From a virus (lineage: Duplodnaviria > Caudoviricetes), in the IMG/VR virus record IMGVR_UViG_3300030330_002704, positions 1 to 40,059 of that record: a DNA stretch of 40,059 nucleotides; one strand, 5' to 3'. This document shows positions 100-40,059 of the stretch, one piece after another. Every line of letters begins with the position of its first letter. The stretch's first letter is position 1. A program made the position numbers and the translations under genes. A model generated the notes under the pieces. That model did not search any database, was not told the DNA's origin, and was given only the letters and a program-made list of their open reading frames with translations.

Positions 100-844
100 A
101 TTGCTTACACGAGATGAGGTCTCTAAGCTGAGCACTCGTGACCAGTTTTACCAGAAGCTAAAGAAGGCACATCTGGGTGGTTACATGTTAAACCAGCGTG
201 AGGTAGCAAACCTCCTCTTCCTTGGTGGTTCTCCTGCTGGGCAGATCGGCATGGCTCTAATCTACGGTAAGCCCGCTCAACGGCCTGGGCCCGTTGAGGC
301 GGGCGATGTTATTAAGCCGCTGGGTGAAATGATTGTTGGTCCTGCGTTATTCCGTATGCTTGGGGATACTGCGACTGCATTGTTTGATCCAATGGCTGAG
401 CGTGGGAACCCTTTTACAAAGGTTCTTTCTCAGGTTGCTCCTGGTCGTCGTCGCTTTATTGAGCAAGAGAAACGCATTGGTGCGATGCCGTTTGAGTACG
501 GTGAGTCTTATAACCCTGAAGAAAAGCTTGCCGAGGTTTACGACTGGTGGCTTGAAAGCATCTTCTACCTTGGCTCTCGTCGTCGGGACTACCCAATCCT
601 AGTTCAACAGTTACTAAAGAAAGAGCGCTCTCGATTGGGTGCAAGTATCATGACTCCGTTTAGACAACGAATGAAAGATGCTTCTTCTATTGAGGAACGG
701 CAAAAGATCTCTGAAGCAATGAATACCTCTGTTAGAGTATTCAATGAAGTAATTGATAAGAAGCTTATTCAAACGGACAAGATGTTTCAGGGGTTAATCT
801 CTAGGGACAAGCAGTCCTACCTTGCCAGAGAGGGCAAACGATGA
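2..844 (+). CDS. C-terminal ~280 aa of the giant virion protein that starts at 32303 (not an independent gene)
   Basis: ...GVVSTWRTTNMDPFSMS... reads in frame across the terminal repeat; stop TGA at 842-844 overlaps next ATG (ATGA). Confidence 0.9.
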   Translation, partial: TWRTTNMDPFSMSTTIFRTQAGILAALISRPEGLLTRDEVSKLSTRDQFYQKLKKAHLGGYMLNQREVANLLFLGGSPAGQIGMALIYGKPAQRPGPVEAGDVIKPLGEMIVGPALFRMLGDTATALFDPMAERGNPFTKVLSQVAPGRRRFIEQEKRIGAMPFEYGESYNPEEKLAEVYDWWLESIFYLGSRRRDYPILVQQLLKKERSRLGASIMTPFRQRMKDASSIEERQKISEAMNTSVRVFNEVIDKKLIQTDKMFQGLISRDKQSYLAREGKR

Positions 845-1227
845 ACGACGGCTATCCCCGCAACTTTAGACCTAACGAGTTTTACTGCAAGTGCGGGAAG
901 TGCTTAGGTTTTCCTCCGAACAAGGCTGTTACCCGTCACCTGGCTTGGGTGCTTCAACAAATTAGGGACCTTGTTAATGTCCCTATTAAGATTACTTCTG
1001 CTTACCGTTGTGAGGAGCACAATAAGAATGTGGGTGGTTCTACTCATTCTCAACACAAGCTGGGATCTGCGGCTGACTTGCAAGCTAAGGGCATGAAGCC
1101 ACAACAACTCCACGCAGCCATTTTGGATTTAGTTGACTCTAAACGGATTCCTGAAGGCGGACTTGGATTATACAGCACATTCGTGCATTATGACATCCGT
1201 CCCAAGAAGGCTCGTTGGAATGGGTAA
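841..1227 (+). CDS. Peptidase M15A-family (Zn D-Ala-D-Ala-type) endolysin
   Basis: EFYCKCG, SAYRCEEHNKNVGGSTHSQHKLGSAAD and FVHYDIR motifs typical of Peptidase_M15_3. Confidence 0.9.
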   Translation: MNDGYPRNFRPNEFYCKCGKCLGFPPNKAVTRHLAWVLQQIRDLVNVPIKITSAYRCEEHNKNVGGSTHSQHKLGSAADLQAKGMKPQQLHAAILDLVDSKRIPEGGLGLYSTFVHYDIRPKKARWNG

Positions 1228-2690: not shown

Positions 2691-2800
2691 TGCCTGGTTA
2701 TCATTCCCCCAAGCCTATGAAGTCTTATACTAGTAAGCGATCTAAAGCTGCTGCCAAGTTAGCGACTAAGAAACCTAAACCAATGAAGAGTGCGTACTAA
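2690..2800 (+). CDS. 36-aa basic peptide (below the ORF-track cutoff)
   Basis: MPGYHSPKPMKSYTSKRSKAAAKLATKKPKPMKSAY; TAATG-coupled at both ends, fills the gap exactly. Confidence 0.7.
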   Translation: MPGYHSPKPMKSYTSKRSKAAAKLATKKPKPMKSAY

Positions 2801-3021
2801 TGTCTGATAAAATGAAATCTCGTAAGCTGTGGCTGTCTATTTTGGCAGCAGTGCTGCCTATCTTAGCCAAGCATTTCTTTCCGACGCTTCCGACTGAAGC
2901 CATCATTGCTTCTTCGCTGGGTGCAGTAGCTGGTGTCATGGGTATCAGTATGGAAGATGTTGCTAAGCAGAAGCGTGCTGCTGTTGAGGCTGCTTCCGCA
3001 AACCCCGAGAAGGGGGACTGA
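2800..3021 (+). CDS. Holin-like two-TM membrane protein (0-frame product)
   Basis: N-terminal KSRKLW followed by two hydrophobic segments and a charged tail; near the endolysin. Confidence 0.7.
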   Translation: MSDKMKSRKLWLSILAAVLPILAKHFFPTLPTEAIIASSLGAVAGVMGISMEDVAKQKRAAVEAASANPEKGD

Positions 3022-3045
3022 CCGCTCTTCGGCGGTCAGCCCCCT
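2986..3045 (+). promoter_or_regulatory. Candidate -1 programmed ribosomal frameshift signal
   Basis: GAGG at 2986-2989, 10 nt upstream of in-register heptamer A_AAC_CCC (3000-3006); 14-bp hairpin AGGGGG-A-CTGACCGC/TCTTCG/GCGGTCAG-CCCCCT at 3011-3045. Confidence 0.55.
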
Positions 3046-3242
3046 CCCTGTTTCTAAAGGATCATGAGTCAGGTGGACTGGATCTTCTCGCAAGAGCTAA
3101 TGTGGATCGGTGGGATACTTCTCTTGTCGCTCGTCACCGTGTTAGGGACAGAGTGGATGCGATCGCTTCCCTGGAAGCGGGTTCAGAGTGGGGCAAACCA
3201 GTGGGATGGGCCGCAACGGCCGGATTAAAGATGAGGTGGTAA
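3000..3242 (+). CDS. -1-frame extension of the holin-like gene (beta-strand domain ending ...GWAATAGLKMRW)
   Basis: Frame open from TGA 2985-2987 to TAA 3240-3242, abutting the next ATG at 3243; only ATG is 3 codons from the end. Confidence 0.55.
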   Translation, partial: KPREGGLTALRRSAPSLFLKDHESGGLDLLARANVDRWDTSLVARHRVRDRVDAIASLEAGSEWGKPVGWAATAGLKMRW

Positions 3243-4346
3243 ATGGCTTCTAGGCAGAAAAAGAAAGAATCTAAAGCATCTAAGCGAGCAGCTAAGAGGG
3301 CTGCTGCTGCTAGAGTCAAGGCACAGAAGACTCAGCGCCCTGGTCCTGGAGGTGGTTTTGAGTACAAGCCTCCGAAGTTGAAGCCTATTGTTTCTAAGGC
3401 TGAACTGGACAATCGCCTTGCTAGGGCGCGAAGGAGGGCTGACCCAGGTACTACAGGCAAGATCTTTCGAGCTGGTGAAATGGCTACACCGGGGCCAACC
3501 AAGCTTCGCTTAAGAGATATAGGAGACCGGTTTTATGAAAGCGATTTCGGCCTGTCGAGGGCACAGGATCTTGATAAGGGTCCAAAAGAAGGTGTGAGCG
3601 AAGCTCGCAGAGTGGGCCGAGCGAAGGAGCTGGAGCGAATTACTCAGCAGCAGAGGCTTGATGATTTAAAGAAGAGCAGGAAGGATAGTCAAACCAGAAG
3701 CAGGAAGATCCGAAGACTGGCTGCAAAAAGATCTGTAGAGCGAAAGGTCAGAGAACGAGCAAAAGAAAAAGCAACGGGCAAGTCAAAGAAGCAAGTGCTT
3801 GGGCCTCACCATGACGTAGTTAGACCTCCTGTTCAGGGTGCCCGAAAGCCGCCGATTCATGGCCCTGACAAGCCTCCTCGCCTGGGACCAGATAAGATGG
3901 TTCAAGGCGCTGATCTCCCAAGCAAGTACGACAAAGGGTTCCTCGGTCCTATGAAGAAGATGGACTACAAGGCGCCAACGAAGAAGGTTCCGAAGGGCGC
4001 TGTTAAGAAAGCTCCTCGTAAGATTAAAGGTCGTGGTGTTATTGGGGCTATTGGAAGTGTAGCGATTCCTTATCTTGTGGGTAGAGCCACGAAGAGCCGC
4101 AGGAACTTAGAGATGGCTAAGAAGCGTAGGGCGGCTGAGGAAGAGAACCCAAAGGTTAAACCCGTTAAATTTAGAACTCGTATTATTCCAGAGCCTAAAG
4201 CCATTCCCCGTAAGCCCCGTAAGCCTAAAGGCAAAGGCAAGTTTCCGGGTTTAAAAATCTTTAGCAAAGAAGAGAGCCGCAAAAGGGCTAAAGAGCGGGA
4301 AGAGCGCGATCGCCAGGTAATGCGTTTTCCCTCCAAGGAAAAGTAA
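3243..4346 (+). CDS. Very basic Lys/Arg-rich, probably disordered protein (putative DNA-condensing internal protein)
   Basis: RBS GAGGTG; 367 aa dominated by K/R/P/G; TAATG coupling to next gene. Confidence 0.75.
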   Translation: MASRQKKKESKASKRAAKRAAAARVKAQKTQRPGPGGGFEYKPPKLKPIVSKAELDNRLARARRRADPGTTGKIFRAGEMATPGPTKLRLRDIGDRFYESDFGLSRAQDLDKGPKEGVSEARRVGRAKELERITQQQRLDDLKKSRKDSQTRSRKIRRLAAKRSVERKVRERAKEKATGKSKKQVLGPHHDVVRPPVQGARKPPIHGPDKPPRLGPDKMVQGADLPSKYDKGFLGPMKKMDYKAPTKKVPKGAVKKAPRKIKGRGVIGAIGSVAIPYLVGRATKSRRNLEMAKKRRAAEEENPKVKPVKFRTRIIPEPKAIPRKPRKPKGKGKFPGLKIFSKEESRKRAKEREERDRQVMRFPSKEK

Positions 4347-4720
4347 TGGCTATTCCTGACGGAGGTTCTGCTGGCAGGCGAGCCGCAATGCTTATGGCCA
4401 AGAAGAGGAAGAAGGGGCGTTCTCCAGATGCGCCTCCTGTTGGTGACGCAGGAAAGCGGCTTGCTGATTTAGCTAGGTCGTCTTCGTCTGCGCGAATGAA
4501 GAATCCCGTAACAAATCCTCTTATGGCTTTTACTGATACTGACAACTTTCGTTCTATCGTTGATGATTATGTTGTGGATACGAGGAGTCCAGAAGGTGCT
4601 ATTACCGATGTTCTTATGACCATCCTTGGTACCAAGGGGCTGTCGTTGGCTGGTAAGGGTATCAAGAAAGGTTACTCTGCTATTCGTTCTAAGGCAGCAA
4701 AGAAGATGCGGTCTAATTAA
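4346..4720 (+). CDS. Basic hypothetical protein
   Basis: TAATG-coupled at both ends; 124 aa. Confidence 0.75.
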   Translation: MAIPDGGSAGRRAAMLMAKKRKKGRSPDAPPVGDAGKRLADLARSSSSARMKNPVTNPLMAFTDTDNFRSIVDDYVVDTRSPEGAITDVLMTILGTKGLSLAGKGIKKGYSAIRSKAAKKMRSN

Positions 4721-4950
4721 TGGCACGGGATTACCGTAGAGAATATGATACGTTCCATGCTCGGCCTGCTGAGATCCGTAAGCGTGCCGCACGTAATAAG
4801 GCACGTTCAATGATGGCGAAAGAAGGCAAGGTAAGAAAGCATGATAGTAAAGACGTTGACCATGTTCTGCCCTTGAAGAATGGCGGCGGTAACGGCAGGG
4901 CTAACTTGCGTGTTTCTTCTATTACTAAGAACCGTAGTCGAAAGACTTGA
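4720..4950 (+). CDS. Small HNH endonuclease-like protein
   Basis: RDYRREY...KRAARNKAR...KDVDHVLPLKNGGGNGRANLRV...NRS: minimal HNH family common in environmental podoviruses. Confidence 0.85.
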   Translation: MARDYRREYDTFHARPAEIRKRAARNKARSMMAKEGKVRKHDSKDVDHVLPLKNGGGNGRANLRVSSITKNRSRKT

Positions 4951-4962
4951 TTAGGAATTGTT

Positions 4963-5703
4963 ATGGCTGAGCGTAAGTTAACTGAAGCGGAAATGGCTAA
5001 GATACGTGAGCGGGTTGAAAGGGATGGCGCTGTAAAGGCCTTTTATCACTACCGTGATAACCTTGACAGCTTTGGGGGCAGGGGGGATTTGGTCCTGGCT
5101 TACGCTTCAGAACTTTCTAAAGATGAGGCGGCAAAGAAAGTTGGTCCTTCTAAAAAAGGCAAGCGTCGTCCTCCGACTGAGGCTGAAATAAAGTCACTTA
5201 AAAGCGGCAAGGCTGTTGTTAGGAACAAGCCTGTTGATCTTGATGATCCAAGGTTTGACTATGCTGATGCTGAGGCCCGAGGCCGCAGGGTTCAAAGGCG
5301 TGAGGCGTTAGCTGCTGCTGCAGCGGGCAGGGAGCTAACTCCCGAACAAGAAGCTGCTTTTGTGAGCGATACTGGTCCTGGCATTAGTGACTACCTTGTT
5401 GGTGGTTACCTTACCAGCAAGGGAGCCCAGCACCTGTTTAGGCCAGAAGGTACGCTTAGGAATTTGGATAAAGCGGAAGGGTTTCTACCTAAAGGTCTCA
5501 GGGCTGTAGTTAAGGGTGTTAAGGCTGGTGCCAGGGCTATGGGTAATGTCCGTGTAACAACGAAGACTCGGCAGGAAGCAGCTAAGAAGTTGGCAGAAAG
5601 TAAGGGCATTCGTACTGGTAAACGAAAGGCTTTAGAACAGGCTTCTAGAGAGAGAAAGATAGAGGCTAAAAGAAAAGAGTTACGTAAGGCTAAGGCTAAG
5701 TAA
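4963..5703 (+). CDS. Basic hypothetical protein, last gene of the plus-strand arm
   Basis: RBS AGGA; 246 aa; 3' end overlaps the helicase 3' end by 8 nt. Confidence 0.75.
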   Translation: MAERKLTEAEMAKIRERVERDGAVKAFYHYRDNLDSFGGRGDLVLAYASELSKDEAAKKVGPSKKGKRRPPTEAEIKSLKSGKAVVRNKPVDLDDPRFDYADAEARGRRVQRREALAAAAAGRELTPEQEAAFVSDTGPGISDYLVGGYLTSKGAQHLFRPEGTLRNLDKAEGFLPKGLRAVVKGVKAGARAMGNVRVTTKTRQEAAKKLAESKGIRTGKRKALEQASRERKIEAKRKELRKAKAK

Positions 5704-15139: not shown

Positions 15140-15515
15140 ACAGCTTAAGGATTACGTCCTGGAGAAAGCGAGGGCGGTTGTACAGGCTAAAGTCGCTGAA
15201 GCGTCTGAGGAGGCGGAGGCGGCGATTGAGTTAGTCGTAGCCCGTCAGAAAGCCACAAGCGCCACCCTGGCCGAAATGCTCCAAGAAGCTATGTGCAAGG
15301 CCCTTGCGTACCCTCATGAGGACTCTTTCCGTCAGTTGTTAATTATCAAGGTTGCGACCGAGGTAGCTAGAAATATTCAGATGATGGATAGAAAAACGTG
15401 GGGCTTAGATGATAAGAGCAACACGAAGACTACTGCTCTCTATGAGGTTTTGAACAACATGGAAGAGACTGTAGAGCGCAAGGCTATTAAGGTCGAAGAG
15501 ACTTACGGAGAGTAA
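14928..15515 (+). CDS. Terminase small subunit (start uncertain, 14928 or 14955)
   Basis: HTH VRAEWESGSTVGSLAEKHNLSSRTIHRWKTKEKW followed by helical region and RKTWGLD; upstream of TerL. Confidence 0.7.
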   Translation: MVKKEAPRGMVSLGERLPRGPRGTASPELMAVVRAEWESGSTVGSLAEKHNLSSRTIHRWKTKEKWKKDPEQLKDYVLEKARAVVQAKVAEASEEAEAAIELVVARQKATSATLAEMLQEAMCKALAYPHEDSFRQLLIIKVATEVARNIQMMDRKTWGLDDKSNTKTTALYEVLNNMEETVERKAIKVEETYGE

Positions 15516-15877
15516 TGGATACGCAGCTTCTCAACGTACTAAGTGACTTTGGTGCGCTGGGATTAGCGTCCGGCGCTATCTTCTGGCTGTATGTGAAAGC
15601 TGCCAAGCGCCAGGAGGAGATGGTCGAGAAGTTCCAGGTGCAGCTACGTGAGCAGGCTGACGAGTGCAATAAACGTGAAGCTGACGTGCGTGACCGTTAC
15701 GACGCTGTGGTGCGTAAGTATGATGAAGAAAGGCTACAGACCTTGCAGCAATTAAGCACAAAGCTTGATTCGTTGGAGAAAGAAGTTAAAGATATGGAAG
15801 CTGCGGTTAAGCAAGGGTTGAGTGAAATGCGTGATCATTACTCTAGTTTAAGTGCTGTGCTAGGCAAGAAAGTATGA
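15515..15877 (+). CDS. N-terminal TM plus coiled-coil protein (BhlA/UviB-like holin or i-spanin-like)
   Basis: FGALGLASGAIFWLYV TM followed by ~85-aa coiled coil. Confidence 0.6.
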   Translation: MDTQLLNVLSDFGALGLASGAIFWLYVKAAKRQEEMVEKFQVQLREQADECNKREADVRDRYDAVVRKYDEERLQTLQQLSTKLDSLEKEVKDMEAAVKQGLSEMRDHYSSLSAVLGKKV

Positions 15878-16275
15878 GTATAGCCAAGAAGACGAATCCT
15901 GCGCTCTGGGAGCGATCTGTAGCCAAGGCAAGGGCTAAAATGGGCGGTCATTCTGGCCGTGCTATGCAGCTAGCTACTAAATATTACAAAAGTGCTGGCG
16001 GAAAATACTCAGGAAAGAAGCCCACTGCTAAAAATAACTCAATGAAAAAGTGGACCAAAGAGGACTGGAAATGGTCAAAAAAGGATAAACCCGGACCTGG
16101 CGGGTCCGGTGTTTATCTACCAAGCAAAAAGATAAGCGGGATGAAGTCAACCGAAAGGGGCAGGGCAAAGCTCAGGGAGGCTGCGGCAAAGAAAGCTGCT
16201 GCCACTCGCAGTGGGCGCCAGTACTCCCGCCATGGTCTTGCGGCTGGCACATCTCTCAAGAGGAAGAAGTCATGA
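15874..16275 (+). CDS. Basic protein, DUF5872-like
   Basis: NPALWE...HSGRAMQLATKYYKSAGGKY...KKWTKEDW...YLP pattern recalled for this family. Confidence 0.7.
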   Translation: MSIAKKTNPALWERSVAKARAKMGGHSGRAMQLATKYYKSAGGKYSGKKPTAKNNSMKKWTKEDWKWSKKDKPGPGGSGVYLPSKKISGMKSTERGRAKLREAAAKKAAATRSGRQYSRHGLAAGTSLKRKKS

Positions 16276-16565
16276 GTTATACTGCTACCCGTCAAAGAGC
16301 TGCTAAGAAGAAAAGTAAGCCGTTTCACGGTTACAACCCAAAGATCCACAGCCGCTCAGGCGGATTAAACGCTGCTGGTCGTGCAAAGTTTAAACGTGAA
16401 GAGGGTGCAAACTTAAAGCCCCCAGTTACTGAAAGCAATCCCAAGGGCAAGCGAGCTGGAAGGAAGAGATCCTTTTGCGCTCGCATGGGAGGAGTTAAGG
16501 GGCCAACGAGCAAGGGCGGTAAGCTGACACCAAAGGGAGCCGCTCTAAAGCGTTGGAAGTGTTAG
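16272..16565 (+). CDS. Basic protein, DUF6321-like
   Basis: GGLNAAGRAKF...NLKPPV...RKRSFCARMGG...ALKRWKC. Confidence 0.75.
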   Translation: MSYTATRQRAAKKKSKPFHGYNPKIHSRSGGLNAAGRAKFKREEGANLKPPVTESNPKGKRAGRKRSFCARMGGVKGPTSKGGKLTPKGAALKRWKC

Positions 16566-16736
16566 ATGCAAACTGTAGAGACCGAAATAGTGCGAGCGCA
16601 TACACGCCTTGACGGCGTGGATGCTCGCCTGAAGCGTATGGAGCGTAAGCTGGATTTCCATACGACGGTGATTATTTCTGTTGTAGCTGTCGCATCTGTT
16701 CTCGGTCCTGCGGCCGCTGCTGTATTGGGGATCTAA
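16566..16736 (+). CDS. 56-aa coiled-coil plus C-terminal TM protein (XhlA-like), below track cutoff
   Basis: MQTVETEIVRAHTRLDGVDARLKRMERKLDFHTTVIISVVAVASVLGPAAAAVLGI; fills gap exactly, TAATG-coupled. Confidence 0.75.
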   Translation: MQTVETEIVRAHTRLDGVDARLKRMERKLDFHTTVIISVVAVASVLGPAAAAVLGI

Positions 16737-38300: not shown

Positions 38301-40059
38301 CTTATATTAATCAGACACTGCTTGATACTGGCTCCGAGATGGTTGCCTCTGTGTTTGGTCGAAATGAGAATGCCATTGGCGGTCTAAATATCAGCAAGGC
38401 AACTCGCAATCAGTTGCAACGGGTTATTCGATCTAACCCCGAGCAAATCATCAAAGCTATCGAGGGGCAGAGAGGGAAGAAGCTAAGCAAGGCTGAGCGG
38501 AAAGATCTTATCGGTGAGGGTGGTAACGTTATTCAAACAAACAGCCGTGTCGGTGAGTACCTTGCATGGCTAGATACCTGGTCCGAGATTGGCAATGTAG
38601 AGGTTCGCTCTGTCTTTAGTAACAGGCGTCAGGCTCTCAGTGACTCCGACCTGGCTGCTATTCGCAATCAGATCTTCCCGAAAGACTCTATGCTTAACCA
38701 GAGTCTTGAAGCTACATTTAAGGATTCTGATTACCTTGTTAGCCCAGAGTGGAATCAAGCTCAGGGCTTTGAACTTGTTGGCCGTATGGAGCTAGATAAC
38801 TTATCTGCTCTTCTTTCACGCAACCAACAGGGTATTAATAAGTACCTGCTCGCTTTCCATCGTCACACTAAGGGTGCACTGACTACTCTTAATCCTGTTA
38901 CTCATGTCGGAAACTTTATGAGTAACGTTGCTGCTATATCAATGCTTACAGGCAAGAACCCCTTATGGGTTATTAAAGACACAGTAACTCACGGGTACCT
39001 GTTTAATAAGCTAAATAAGTTAAAGCGGTCTGGGCGCAAGGGTGACATTAAGAAGTTCCAAGAGAAGTATCCTGATGTTTATAGTGACTTTGAACTTCTT
39101 CGCCGTCTGGGTGTTCGCTTAGATCAGTTGTCTCGGTATGAGCTTGCTGGCCTTACAGAGATGCTTGGGGATACTTCTCTCACCAAGAAGATGAATCGTG
39201 AGTTCGGTAAACTAGGCAGGGCTCCTGTTGAGGCTGGCAACTTTGGCAAATTTGTTACTGGCTTTGCTGAAGCTGGCAACAGGGCACAAAAGGCCGCTCG
39301 TCGTCAGGCAGTTAAAGCATATAACCTTGGTGATGTTTCGTTCCGTGTTGCTGAGTTTAGGCGTGAGCTGGGTGAGATGCGTAGTGCTCTTAGCAGGCTG
39401 GATGTTGGGGATAAGGCCAATCCTAGATACATTGATCTCCGTACTGGCCCCAACAGTTACACTCGTATTTACAAAGAGGGCATGCCCGGTGCCCCCATCT
39501 ATAAGATGTGGGCCAAGGGCAAGTGGCGTGAGGTTAGCCCTGGTGAGATGCAGACACGCCTAGGCAAAGCTGCTCTCCGTAAAGTTAATCAGGTTATCTT
39601 TGATTATGGTGATATTCCGAACTTTATTCGGTTTATTCGAGACATGCCTTTGTCCCCAATCTTTAGCCCCTTTGTTACCTGGGCCTATAAAGCTTCGGAT
39701 ATTGCGGGTGCTAAGCGTGGCCTGATTGCTAACACTTTGTTTGAGAATCCTGGTTACCTTTCTAACGACGGTGCCGTTATGGCAATGCAACAGCGCCAGA
39801 TGATGATGCGAGATTTGCGTCGATCTGGTTTAGTTGCCGGCCTTACTTCTGTGCGTGATACTCAGGATGAGATCTCGTCCAAGCTAGGGTCGTACTTAAA
39901 TGAGCGCACTGGAATGGACACAGGGCTGGTTATGTCAACCATGCGTCCTGGTGTTGTTAGTACCTGGCGTACTACCAATATGGACCCGTTCTCTATGTCT
40001 ACAACCATCTTTAGAACTCAGGCTGGCATCCTTGCTGCTTTGATTTCTAGGCCGGAAGG
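32303..40059 (+). CDS. Giant (~2,833 aa) internal virion/ejectosome protein, continuing through the circular junction to 844
   Basis: ATG 32303 (MVTEPFADTS...) overlaps previous stop; no in-frame stop found by eye, and the track reports no ORF in this frame, consistent with running off the edge. Confidence 0.85.
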   Translation, partial: MVTEPFADTSQSIRGFYEAQRRMGQDPSTIDALAEERFGATLRGAYERGIDIDQPMPSQFAQTGMDVASQLPPEQPAQSVQPGAMGRPDEGIELADITDVPASVGGGLAGFAYGLGVDVPKALARGMGINLFNQADARVVSAAQDEWDTNVRMPLVRLAIEAGQSPELVHKLAQNDANWWDGSRGSVNRKFVNFGLLSPEDQQGDFQLRKSPILVGIRNIMNASGQEGFNALDLLTPDQQVAAIRSFEEAARAKGRIIDERLENDPVTQQIYDLESMVHQLDQEDKTFLQDAETDFKQLRDDTFYLIAEALGATEIQADYQQLASQGYFGRTAARASQAFQTGRGMSAGMVSLPVVAWNNPSLVRRKPVLSGMMILPFLKRGKGLTNKVKEVLQRQAAAGDTAAAAILAKAEAIGGTQIPGLRVRDTEVAGSPGVRPTPAVRPMQVSDLGAIPTGAMATLPFGVPEIGAAYGATGALARGAMGRFAPRFGQDAARESARGMAGEVSSVFDKLQEAIVRQEEMDQAGVREQRVTLDEPGYPVQVGEAPIEGALGQTQAAIGQPRIRQAPARMDFQSSSPFDNASQNLRMNNIANMVTSLRERLNLDPNEFIGSGIYRDGKYVEYFPFKDFKPLKVLADDSPELNARQVRFVKRQRDIVAAMIAERLENDYRYFRETNPSINRETILLDYASQLGLLDTERPVSTYKTTFNVEGDLKSFTPKDLDPGTFRELGFLPETINEFFENLGNERVLGETGFRNSIDLFDNVVDGYMATLEADGLANGDFVFIPDKAKTGIMFHDSARGPKYQTAQWVEQSVSPEVLRQFGLTDTGIKESIRFDGSIRANTPLARAVEASGNPKPRFYEMPYKDGAKYVPDTKDLGYERSVDPFRVTEEMAQNPERYGAVGASVDSQGRPTLLYPQEVVPEGKTQAVPRMREDRRVIDPETGEPALRQTTFASRTVRGTTRPDSEALMVEVGETRPSTGYALAESGRGKVRRETTLQDVLPGETEAAARFRQQFIAKSKDKRSRGSELTDAEKAQDSPLVRSIESRVGRKLSRSKTAEVDPGVPGRSISTSREVGQSMPLAGKRLAREQRLFEAGKKTQRPGTKKVVERDPELLEAFSDIEQHRRLRANEFAAKEFYQPFSPESLPNKQLNWLEGNPFKATKDDFQVLRGENFTPRTRALELDKFNRLKIVEVEQGSLVSVPFAKGPHGKTKTETGKSIPLSKRRGTDPVLDPGFYAWDPKTKSLINVDGYKPFRSPDQLVARTMELATADPQMTGVGSAPAAYRASFVKKDPKTGKRLPKSDQERIVELSDIQSERPLTGAQVKELEGLRDAELRAAGVKKTKGTKFLSEDQLDAKKKKILRVLDRAKKQKQAQVYSAVGGLLVTGSRSDAPRVFKGKKDWAAKRRKQGATIQDAPAYNTGASMANWLILSSGRTDKLTRKATRLRTSKWITAGNQARVTVSNSSVRSLKNSIGDDLQAINRAIYNDGQFLEAVQAIDEMRYGSRETGFSGVKGAIEESVYSGGQGIDVGIGKRGRRDLYKETDFVMPENRMASHLTLTDLVGLDDALAVLRKTAIQRAIRGTAVDPITLRSAIKNNPYREAFTRLTEQSWVKKLDNLSALQLDKLKSDIANFQTKDIYKGKAKQPVNLPDNVKKVLDDFTQVEYDALYAVIDRAKSSEMSKQLTKQENLFDSLARNSEKRRAEGDVYKAADLTMERPEQIAVLRQTVEAQGKEYVAPLDVIAGLDQRPLNDQILKSFDARPGKPLKVGPDTEVVRPDNRISVDPFINTLIDRQSRRLTQLTDIPARNIKIALTRLTREVFERGVGMLASSDLQGAVKQLALRKMKQEAKTKHNIIMDQGLVDQASTALDQILARFDRPFRLVDPNEVVTLQSLGLTDVVQNVGIKGGNDVKVTIPLEPLFNEALQTVRQSKKISESEIAMQAAMKISKMLSDEARQAAFFKSLRNDSQRLNIVPERMAEINSLLARENLSPSDRAYINQTLLDTGSEMVASVFGRNENAIGGLNISKATRNQLQRVIRSNPEQIIKAIEGQRGKKLSKAERKDLIGEGGNVIQTNSRVGEYLAWLDTWSEIGNVEVRSVFSNRRQALSDSDLAAIRNQIFPKDSMLNQSLEATFKDSDYLVSPEWNQAQGFELVGRMELDNLSALLSRNQQGINKYLLAFHRHTKGALTTLNPVTHVGNFMSNVAAISMLTGKNPLWVIKDTVTHGYLFNKLNKLKRSGRKGDIKKFQEKYPDVYSDFELLRRLGVRLDQLSRYELAGLTEMLGDTSLTKKMNREFGKLGRAPVEAGNFGKFVTGFAEAGNRAQKAARRQAVKAYNLGDVSFRVAEFRRELGEMRSALSRLDVGDKANPRYIDLRTGPNSYTRIYKEGMPGAPIYKMWAKGKWREVSPGEMQTRLGKAALRKVNQVIFDYGDIPNFIRFIRDMPLSPIFSPFVTWAYKASDIAGAKRGLIANTLFENPGYLSNDGAVMAMQQRQMMMRDLRRSGLVAGLTSVRDTQDEISSKLGSYLNERTGMDTGLVMSTMRPGVVSTWRTTNMDPFSMSTTIFRTQAGILAALISRPE
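39961..40059. repeat. Terminal direct repeat, right copy
   Basis: 98/99 identity to 1-99. Confidence 0.97.

Follow-up and report, generated by a model that had tools for sequence, protein, structure and literature searches.

A holin-like gene of a marine phage probably extended by programmed -1 frameshifting into a predicted beta-strand module: a candidate outer-membrane lysis cassette

The window, meaning the whole 40,059-base stretch analysed here, is a virus record that is estimated to be complete and whose ends (1-99 and 39961-40059) match each other at 98 of 99 overlapping bases. Its genes include those for a terminase, a P22-like portal protein, a capsid protein and an M15 endolysin, a combination that indicates a podovirus-like phage. 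The sequencing runs that hold at least half of the stretch searched are marine metagenomes, with no RNA run listed among them. At 1.6 kb downstream of the endolysin gene (841-1227), a cassette of approximately 440 bases holds three overlapping reading frames, the third of which is a probable nested gene (Table 1). The -1 frame of the holin-like gene is bounded by TGA at 2985-2987 and TAA at 3240-3242, and the next ATG follows at 3243. A slip at A_AAC_CCC is computed to yield a product of 69 plus 78 residues, 147 aa in total. The ORF, heptamer, GAGG, hairpin, -1 frame bounds and 147-aa fusion all lie where the preliminary description had placed them. Elsewhere in the record, an open ORF of 2585 aa at its end probably runs on into 20-844, forming one giant virion protein.

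Table 1. Features of the cassette and of related genes in the window
Feature	Position	Strand	Evidence or remark
Two-helix holin-like gene, 73 aa, predicted major product	2800..3021	+	phrog_9987 match; pN/pS
Internal Shine-Dalgarno-like GAGG, likely stimulator	2986..2989	+	10 nt before heptamer
Slippery heptamer A_AAC_CCC	3000..3006	+	in codon register
Stem-loop containing the holin stop, likely stimulator	3011..3045	+	predicted fold
-1 frame ORF, 78 codons added after the slip, no conserved start	2988..3242	+	selection; stops
Four predicted amphipathic beta-strands	3066..3239	+	AlphaFold2; alternating faces; profile comparison
Positions of the four strands (approximate)	3066-3098, 3108-3143, 3153-3188, 3204-3239	+	
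Nested third ORF, probable gene, holin frame, 54 aa	3064..3228	+	hydrophobic segment and polar tail
Peptidase M15 endolysin, without signal sequence	841..1227	+	phrog_894, E 3e-34; PF08291, E 8e-21
Candidate BhlA-like holin or i-spanin-like protein, N-terminal helix and coiled coil	15515..15877	+	weak PHROG matches

The 30 plus-strand genes of the window have 33 heptamers in register; of these, the site at 3000 combines the longest open -1 frame (80 codons, against 44 for the next) with the most stable downstream fold. Loci related to the cassette were retrieved in several ways, the heptamer never being used as a query. A search with the holin alone, unselected on the tail, returned 41 viral loci, of which the truncated L035 was set aside; in each of the 40 analysed, the beta ORF occupies the -1 frame (the sequence of L025 runs out within it) and a heptamer lies 16-40 nt ahead of the holin stop. 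Extended searches returned 146 sequences, of which 139 contain both genes, always in the -1 relation, and of the other seven, four are truncated contigs and three belong to a second clade; the 139 loci reduce to 71 distinct junctions (clade A). The second clade (B), with a holin barely related to that of clade A (HH probability 15%), comprises 30 loci, six of them truncated and excluded; the remaining 24 (21 distinct) are all in the -1 relation, with G_GGA_AAG or A_AAA_AAG. A scan for the last-strand motif gave 82 loci, 57 already known and 25 new, and the same layout was found in all 21 of the new loci with enough upstream DNA (20 distinct; four are truncated), one group of which carries a third kind of holin. 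Thus all 112 distinct junctions from marine phages place the beta ORF in the -1 frame relative to a two-helix holin-like gene, and in each of them (71/71 in clade A, 21/21 in clade B, 20/20 in the motif-scan loci) an in-register X_XXY_YYZ heptamer precedes the holin stop, compared to 29 of 437 control ORFs over the same span.

The loci share ancestry and the junction counts are not independent, so the turnover of heptamer words carries more weight than the raw total. With overlapping heptamers resolved by a fixed priority, the 71 clade-A junctions use G_GGA_AAG (28), A_AAA_AAG (20), C_CCT_TTG (11), G_GGA_AAC (7), A_AAC_CCC (3), A_AAC_CCT (1) and C_CCT_TTA (1), and a tree of 90 rows and 57 columns, of low resolution, implies approximately 15 changes among seven words. 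Conservation of the heptamer, proposed earlier as a check, therefore takes the form of a site that is kept at every distinct junction while its letters change. In the available portion of a survey of E. coli motifs (PMC4066793), V_VVA_AAG is ranked highest, C_CCU_UUG and C_CCU_UUA are given as shift-prone, and G_GGA_AAC is weak yet used by IS elements; A_AAC_CCC is not among the most efficient motifs there, and is absent from the three that stay inactive despite a strong stimulator.

The likely stimulators vary with the word. Of 71 clade-A loci, 68 use GAG for the Glu codon upstream of the heptamer, compared to 47 of 142 other Glu codons of the holin and 256 of 575 in the background, and the resulting Shine-Dalgarno (SD)-like site is spaced 7-16 nt from the heptamer across loci. 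The hairpin of the window, with 15 predicted pairs, one bulge and a UUCG loop, begins 4 nt past the heptamer and has a fold z of -2.66 (91 nt). For the 60 nt downstream, z is -4.5 to -7.2 in three A_AAC_CCC loci; hairpin z averages -2.7 in G_GGA_AAC loci, is near zero in clade-A A_AAA_AAG loci and in G_GGA_AAG loci, and is -2.7 in clade-B A_AAA_AAG loci, seven of eight of which have no SD-like site. Weak words or a missing SD-like site thus tend to be paired with strong stems. The covariation that had been suggested as a further check of the hairpin did not emerge at a significant level: two of the 15 pairs changed on both sides among four sequences, a result equalled in 51 of 500 shuffles. 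Another site put forward earlier, G_GGG_GAC at 3012-3018, is not an X_XXY_YYZ heptamer, lies inside the stem and is confined to the clade of the window.

Selection changes frame across the junction. In the holin region, pN/pS is 0.13 in frame 0 and the -1 frame contains stops in 62 of 63 loci. The beta core of clade A gives a pN/pS of 0.31 for the -1 frame, in which none of 68 loci has a stop, as against 0.88 and 1.47 for the other two frames; in that of clade B the values are 0.27, 0.95 and 1.70, again with no stops in the -1 frame. A pN/pS of approximately 0.3 and the absence of stops indicate purifying selection on the -1 frame, and the frame has no conserved start of its own, so the earlier call to look for selection, stops and an independent start came out in favour of recoding. 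The layout, its conservation and the selection on the -1 frame set the arrangement far from chance. A programmed -1 ribosomal frameshift at the heptamer, aided by the upstream SD-like site or by the hairpin, is strongly supported by the 112 junctions and by the frame switch, and on this comparative evidence is very probable; the share of ribosomes that slip is probably small.

Other origins of the tail are far less probable. Gene callers annotate the beta ORF as a separate gene of 62-71 aa, and the database proteins have ATG, GTG or TTG starts; GTG or ATG lies 67 codons before the stop in 13 of 20 clade-B loci, but in the other seven the codon called as the start is GTT, ATT, CTG or GTC, and in clade A a -1 frame start giving at least 52 aa exists in only 19 of 70 loci, with an SD in two of 70. 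A separate beta product would moreover be without an export signal and would leave the heptamers unexplained, all of which makes two independent genes very improbable. Transcriptional rather than ribosomal slippage could be accommodated in the few relatives with runs of eight or nine A (A_AAA_AAC or A_AAA_AAA in L272, L303, L305 and L339), but most words (G_GGA_AAG, C_CCT_TTG, A_AAC_CCC) contain no long run, the site is always in codon register, and the SD-like codon is preferred; this alternative is rated slightly lower still. An assembly artefact or a decayed single gene is the least credible of the three. Four database proteins (P0003, P0008, P0015, P0062) are in-frame deletion chimeras, as an artefact could produce, but the -1 relation holds in 112 of 112 distinct junctions, a full-length in-frame fusion was not seen, and the junction was without indel across the two ORFs in contigs of four runs (one possibly the source sample), three contigs bridging it, which rules out a sequencing error at this point. 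The search for a full-length fusion gave none among candidates of 141-2000 aa (a weak search), none in 12 representative matches and none among the matches listed, 120 of 197 holin homologues. In the four chimeras, internal deletions fuse the beta frame to the holin frame or to the nested one; three of them are found on single short contigs, and they may be natural variants or assembly chimeras. Readthrough of the holin stop into the nested ORF was also considered and rejected: the stop is TAG in 43, TAA in 22 and TGA in 5 of 70 loci, and a second stop follows within 11 codons in 11 of 70.

Recoding signals of this kind are known. As described in part of PMC4066793, the IS911/IS3 and dnaX signals likewise combine an X_XXY_YYZ heptamer with an upstream SD-like site and a downstream structure, and the A_AAA_AAG and G_GGA_AAG used by relatives of the cassette are among the best E. 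coli motifs. The G/GT-type frameshift of lambda and other tailed phages similarly makes a short and an extended product from one gene (PMC5009743, in part). Known phage frameshifts in the portion of the literature covered extend tail chaperones and capsid or tail proteins, often with Ig-like domains, whereas the product extended here is holin-like; 'holin', 'spanin' and 'outer membrane' have no occurrence in 300,000 of the 449,034 characters of PMC5009743. Titles and abstract openings, with few subscription journals and no supplements, gave no holin frameshift or barrel-anchored spanin. A frameshift in a lysis-type gene was thus not found described, and more than 100 loci offer natural swaps of words and stimulators. 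A_AAA_AAG also occurs in register at 16077 and 32174, in other genes of the window; the 16077 site has an SD-like site, a fold of -24 kcal/mol and only three open -1 codons, and could shorten its product.

The preliminary description had spoken of a one-gene system, overlooking the nested ORF at 3064-3228. In the window this ORF may start at ATG 3064 or at GTG 3073, which lies 11 nt after AAAGGA (3056-3061). Within the tail, every one of the 70 clade-A loci has an open stretch of 53-65 codons in the holin frame; over the core this frame is free of stops in 64 of 70 clade-A loci, compared to 4.3 expected from synonymous resampling, and in 11 of 20 clade-B loci, compared to 0.9 expected. It is far more hydrophobic than in simulation, a hydrophobic nested ORF being present in 106 of 110 loci where about 36 are expected, and synonymous change in the -1 frame is 0.37 over the nested ORF compared to 0.59 in the holin. 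Outside clade A, ATG or GTG precedes the helix in 40 of 40 loci, mostly one codon after the holin stop, with an SD-like site in 31 of 40; clade A is weaker in this respect, with ATG or GTG in 32 of 70 loci, 26 of them with an SD-like site. Six examples of the protein searched against databases matched no named family. By these reading-frame statistics, a nested single-helix protein of 36-65 aa across loci is probably the product of a third gene, so the cassette would not be a one-gene system. Automated gene calling overlooks or shortens the fusion and the nested gene alike.

The 73-aa gene is assigned a holin function by a weak match to phrog_9987 (E 0.0077) and by the nearest Pfam clusters in the ESM Atlas, which are all holins (scores 0.82-0.83, a lead only), a Pfam search with the protein having given no match. 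The second helix carries an invariant S-xx-G-xxx-G-xx-G pattern. Two helices, an N-in/C-in orientation by charge counts and a nearby endolysin gene correspond to a class II holin layout. The mean number of Lys plus Arg in 70 loci is 4.0 at the N-terminus, 0.6 in the loop and 3.0 after helix 2, which predicts a cytoplasmic C-terminus and counts against an outer-membrane route; the caveat raised earlier, that two helices would put the tail in the cytoplasm, stands. The window contains two other membrane-protein genes that the preliminary description missed. The 120-aa product of 15515-15877 has weak BhlA/UviB-like, holin and Rz-like PHROG matches (E 0.0035-0.03), and genes like it immediately precede the clade-B holin in five loci (L149, L151, L153, L168, L173) and follow shortly downstream in one (L010). 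The 56-aa product of 16566-16736, encoded in a tightly packed position before the terminase region, has a coiled coil, a C-terminal helix and an XhlA-like match (E 0.12). From these weak matches, the plain holin function could lie elsewhere than in the cassette.

From 38 sequences, AlphaFold2 predicts a tail with four strands, each 10-12 residues long and modelled at a pLDDT of 87-97, and the faces of the strands alternate in tail sequences as in amphipathic strands. Between the helices and the strands lies a linker of 33-42 residues in 70 loci, roughly 38, although the heptamer moves. The tail ends with the last strand, with no residues after it, and G-x-x-hydrophobic-x-aromatic is found at the end of 90 of 90 complete clade-A and clade-B tails, the aromatic residue being Trp in the window. 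Later searches used this terminal motif, so that only the holin-retrieved set is unbiased for the tail end; 39 of 39 complete tails in that set end in Arg-Trp. The terminal strand resembles what we take to be the BAM beta-signal. This signal is discussed in PMC8292188, the available portion of which does not print its consensus.

Profile comparisons with alignments built from fetched genes place the tail near several barrel families. A profile of 40 diverse sequences scores 25.7 against trimeric anchors, 24.8 against OMP ends and 29.5 against autotransporter C-termini, compared to 7.8-12.2 against eight soluble phage proteins and at most 14.8 against column-shuffled alignments, and it aligns end-to-end with autotransporter C-terminal strands at a probability of 77%. 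The clade-A profile scores 27.6 against 18 trimeric anchors (probability 65%) and the clade-B profile 11.5; the combined A and B profile reaches only 18.6 against autotransporter anchors, and profiles of small sub-clades score 10-21 against barrel families. The trimeric anchors themselves score 28.2 against ordinary OMP ends. The similar scores against three barrel families make the tail generally like an outer-membrane barrel rather than specifically like a trimeric-autotransporter anchor; of the earlier structural proposal, the four strands and, with moderate support, an outer-membrane module stand, and the trimeric-autotransporter identity is not singled out by these scores. Like the YadA/Hia anchor (PF03895) and other outer-membrane barrels, the tail has a helix or linker, four strands and a terminal aromatic residue, but it has no Pfam match, signal peptide or passenger, its clade-B profile does not match, and the C-termini of monomeric autotransporters and OMP_b-brl proteins match it as well as the YadA/Hia anchors do. 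Other findings count against a barrel: the clade-B model has a pLDDT of 60 with the last two segments helical, and some lumen-side positions in clade B are hydrophobic. Foldseek gave no match at E 0.001, Hia ranking third (E 0.037), and VIA ranked gasdermin B best (Z 8.0), with Hia at Z 6.5 (rmsd 2.8, 55 aligned), Z of 8 or below being a common level by the tool's own note. Searches of Pfam, PHROGs, PDB sequences and cultured phages with the beta domain gave no match, and neither did an Rfam search. On balance, the modelled strands are more likely than not part of an outer-membrane barrel, inserted through the beta-signal-like terminal strand and made from several copies because four strands cannot close a barrel alone.

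The cassette lies in a lysis context. Of 14 loci picked across clades, 12 have an endolysin gene no more than about 3 kb away, and the endolysins that accompany the cassette come from at least three unrelated families (phrog_894, phrog_435, phrog_33083; L038:463-1050, L153:4540-5112, L173:2728-3312). L046 has its cassette between the genes for the capsid and portal proteins and lacks an endolysin within 3 kb. Cysteine is absent from the 73-aa product, which therefore has no lipobox. A regex scan, weaker than LipoP, of the window and nine related genomes (88-100% complete) gave no credible lipoprotein spanin: it returned 14 lipobox-like ORFs, none of them in the window, as had been said of this genome before. 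Two of the 14 have an SD, one lipobox-like pair recurs in two genomes without an SD, and none was judged gene-like. The absence of lipoprotein spanins fits the proposed spanin-replacing role. Relatives of the endolysin occur in Nonlabens and Vibrio phages at less than 48% identity. Host assignment from bins was abandoned, since a Parvibaculum title (8.7-kb contig) disagrees with an Alteromonas macleodii bin label; both matches are probably binned phage contigs.

In the mechanism proposed here, most ribosomes would make the 73-aa protein and a minority would slip to make the 147-aa protein of two helices, linker and four strands, the frameshift rate setting the ratio of plain holin to barrel-bearing holin. 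The two-helix topology would initially keep the tail in the cytoplasm, inactive; a holin lesion, or departure of the glycine-rich helix 2 from the membrane, would let the tail reach the periplasm, where several copies would assemble into a closed outer-membrane barrel; with the wall degraded by the endolysin, the fusion would then join the inner and outer membranes. The favoured reading, held tentatively and at somewhat less than an even chance, is that during lysis the fusion does the work of spanins by tethering or breaching the outer membrane. A linker of 38 residues is short for an intact periplasm, which speaks against tethering.

Because the crossing of the inner membrane is left unexplained, two other readings each keep a minor share of the probability. 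If ribosomes do shift frame but the tail remains at the cytoplasmic face, the fusion may form a beta-pore in the inner membrane or set holin/antiholin timing, with the nested helix as co-factor; the positive-inside topology agrees with this and no change of topology would be needed, and the top VIA matches are pore strands of gasdermin and MAC (Z 7.4-8.0), gasdermin-like pores having four strands per copy. Such Z values are commonplace, however, and both the invariant terminal G-x-x-hydrophobic-x-aromatic strand with nothing after it and the 77% end-to-end alignment with autotransporter C-terminal strands count against an inner-membrane location, which is unlikely on this evidence. Marginally less likely, the fusion serves in the outer membrane for something other than lysis, such as superinfection exclusion, envelope remodelling or a virion-membrane part, exported by helix 1 and wrongly labelled a holin. 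The weak holin match, the presence of a second holin-like gene, a short first helix after a basic N-terminus and an ESM Atlas lead to the cyanophage OMP PF24653 (score 0.94, 148 shared features) are consistent with such a protein, but the adjacent endolysin in 12 of 14 loci, the lack of a conserved small residue at the signal-peptidase site (judged by eye) and the lack of any other spanin candidate argue against it.

If the fusion does act on the outer membrane during lysis, it could constitute a fourth route beside two-component spanins, u-spanins and disruptins, in which holin triggering frees a barrel tail that then connects and fuses the inner and outer membranes, with the nested helix as a partner, a proposal that is more tentative again. 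Judged from sequence, the protein architecture would not be that of a spanin and appears to fit no named family. In the portion of PMC6139136 available, the T1 gp11 u-spanin is, as proposed here, one beta-rich polypeptide with inner and outer anchors. However, T1 gp11 is anchored by a lipoprotein moiety at its N-terminus and by a helix at its C-terminus, whereas the cassette has the reverse order and no lipobox, and its outer anchor is a predicted piece of a barrel made by a putative frameshift. As in the embedded Rz/Rz1 of lambda, a second membrane protein lies inside the first in another frame, but the cassette has no lipoprotein, and its nested protein is a single helix of 36-65 aa without a long coiled coil. 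By published descriptions, the nested ORF resembles in size, and in clade B also in its basic N-terminus, the disruptin phiKT gp28, a 56-aa cationic peptide of a spanin-less phage (10.1101/515445), and Lcc6 of LambdaSo, a membrane protein of 65 aa that works at the holin stage (10.1101/2024.01.23.576932); a frameshift product or a beta module features in neither abstract. Approximately 13% of surveyed genomes of phages with Gram-negative hosts are without an identifiable spanin (PMC6139136, in part), and for the crossing of the outer membrane by such phages the cassette is a small and directly testable candidate, which, if the proposal is true, would contain a complete outer-membrane route in approximately 440 bases and be widespread in marine podoviruses. 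Many small ORFs very rich in Lys and Arg lie around the cassette (2690-2800, 3243-5703, 15874-16565), as they do in its relatives, and could encode DNA-binding or disruptin-like cationic proteins.
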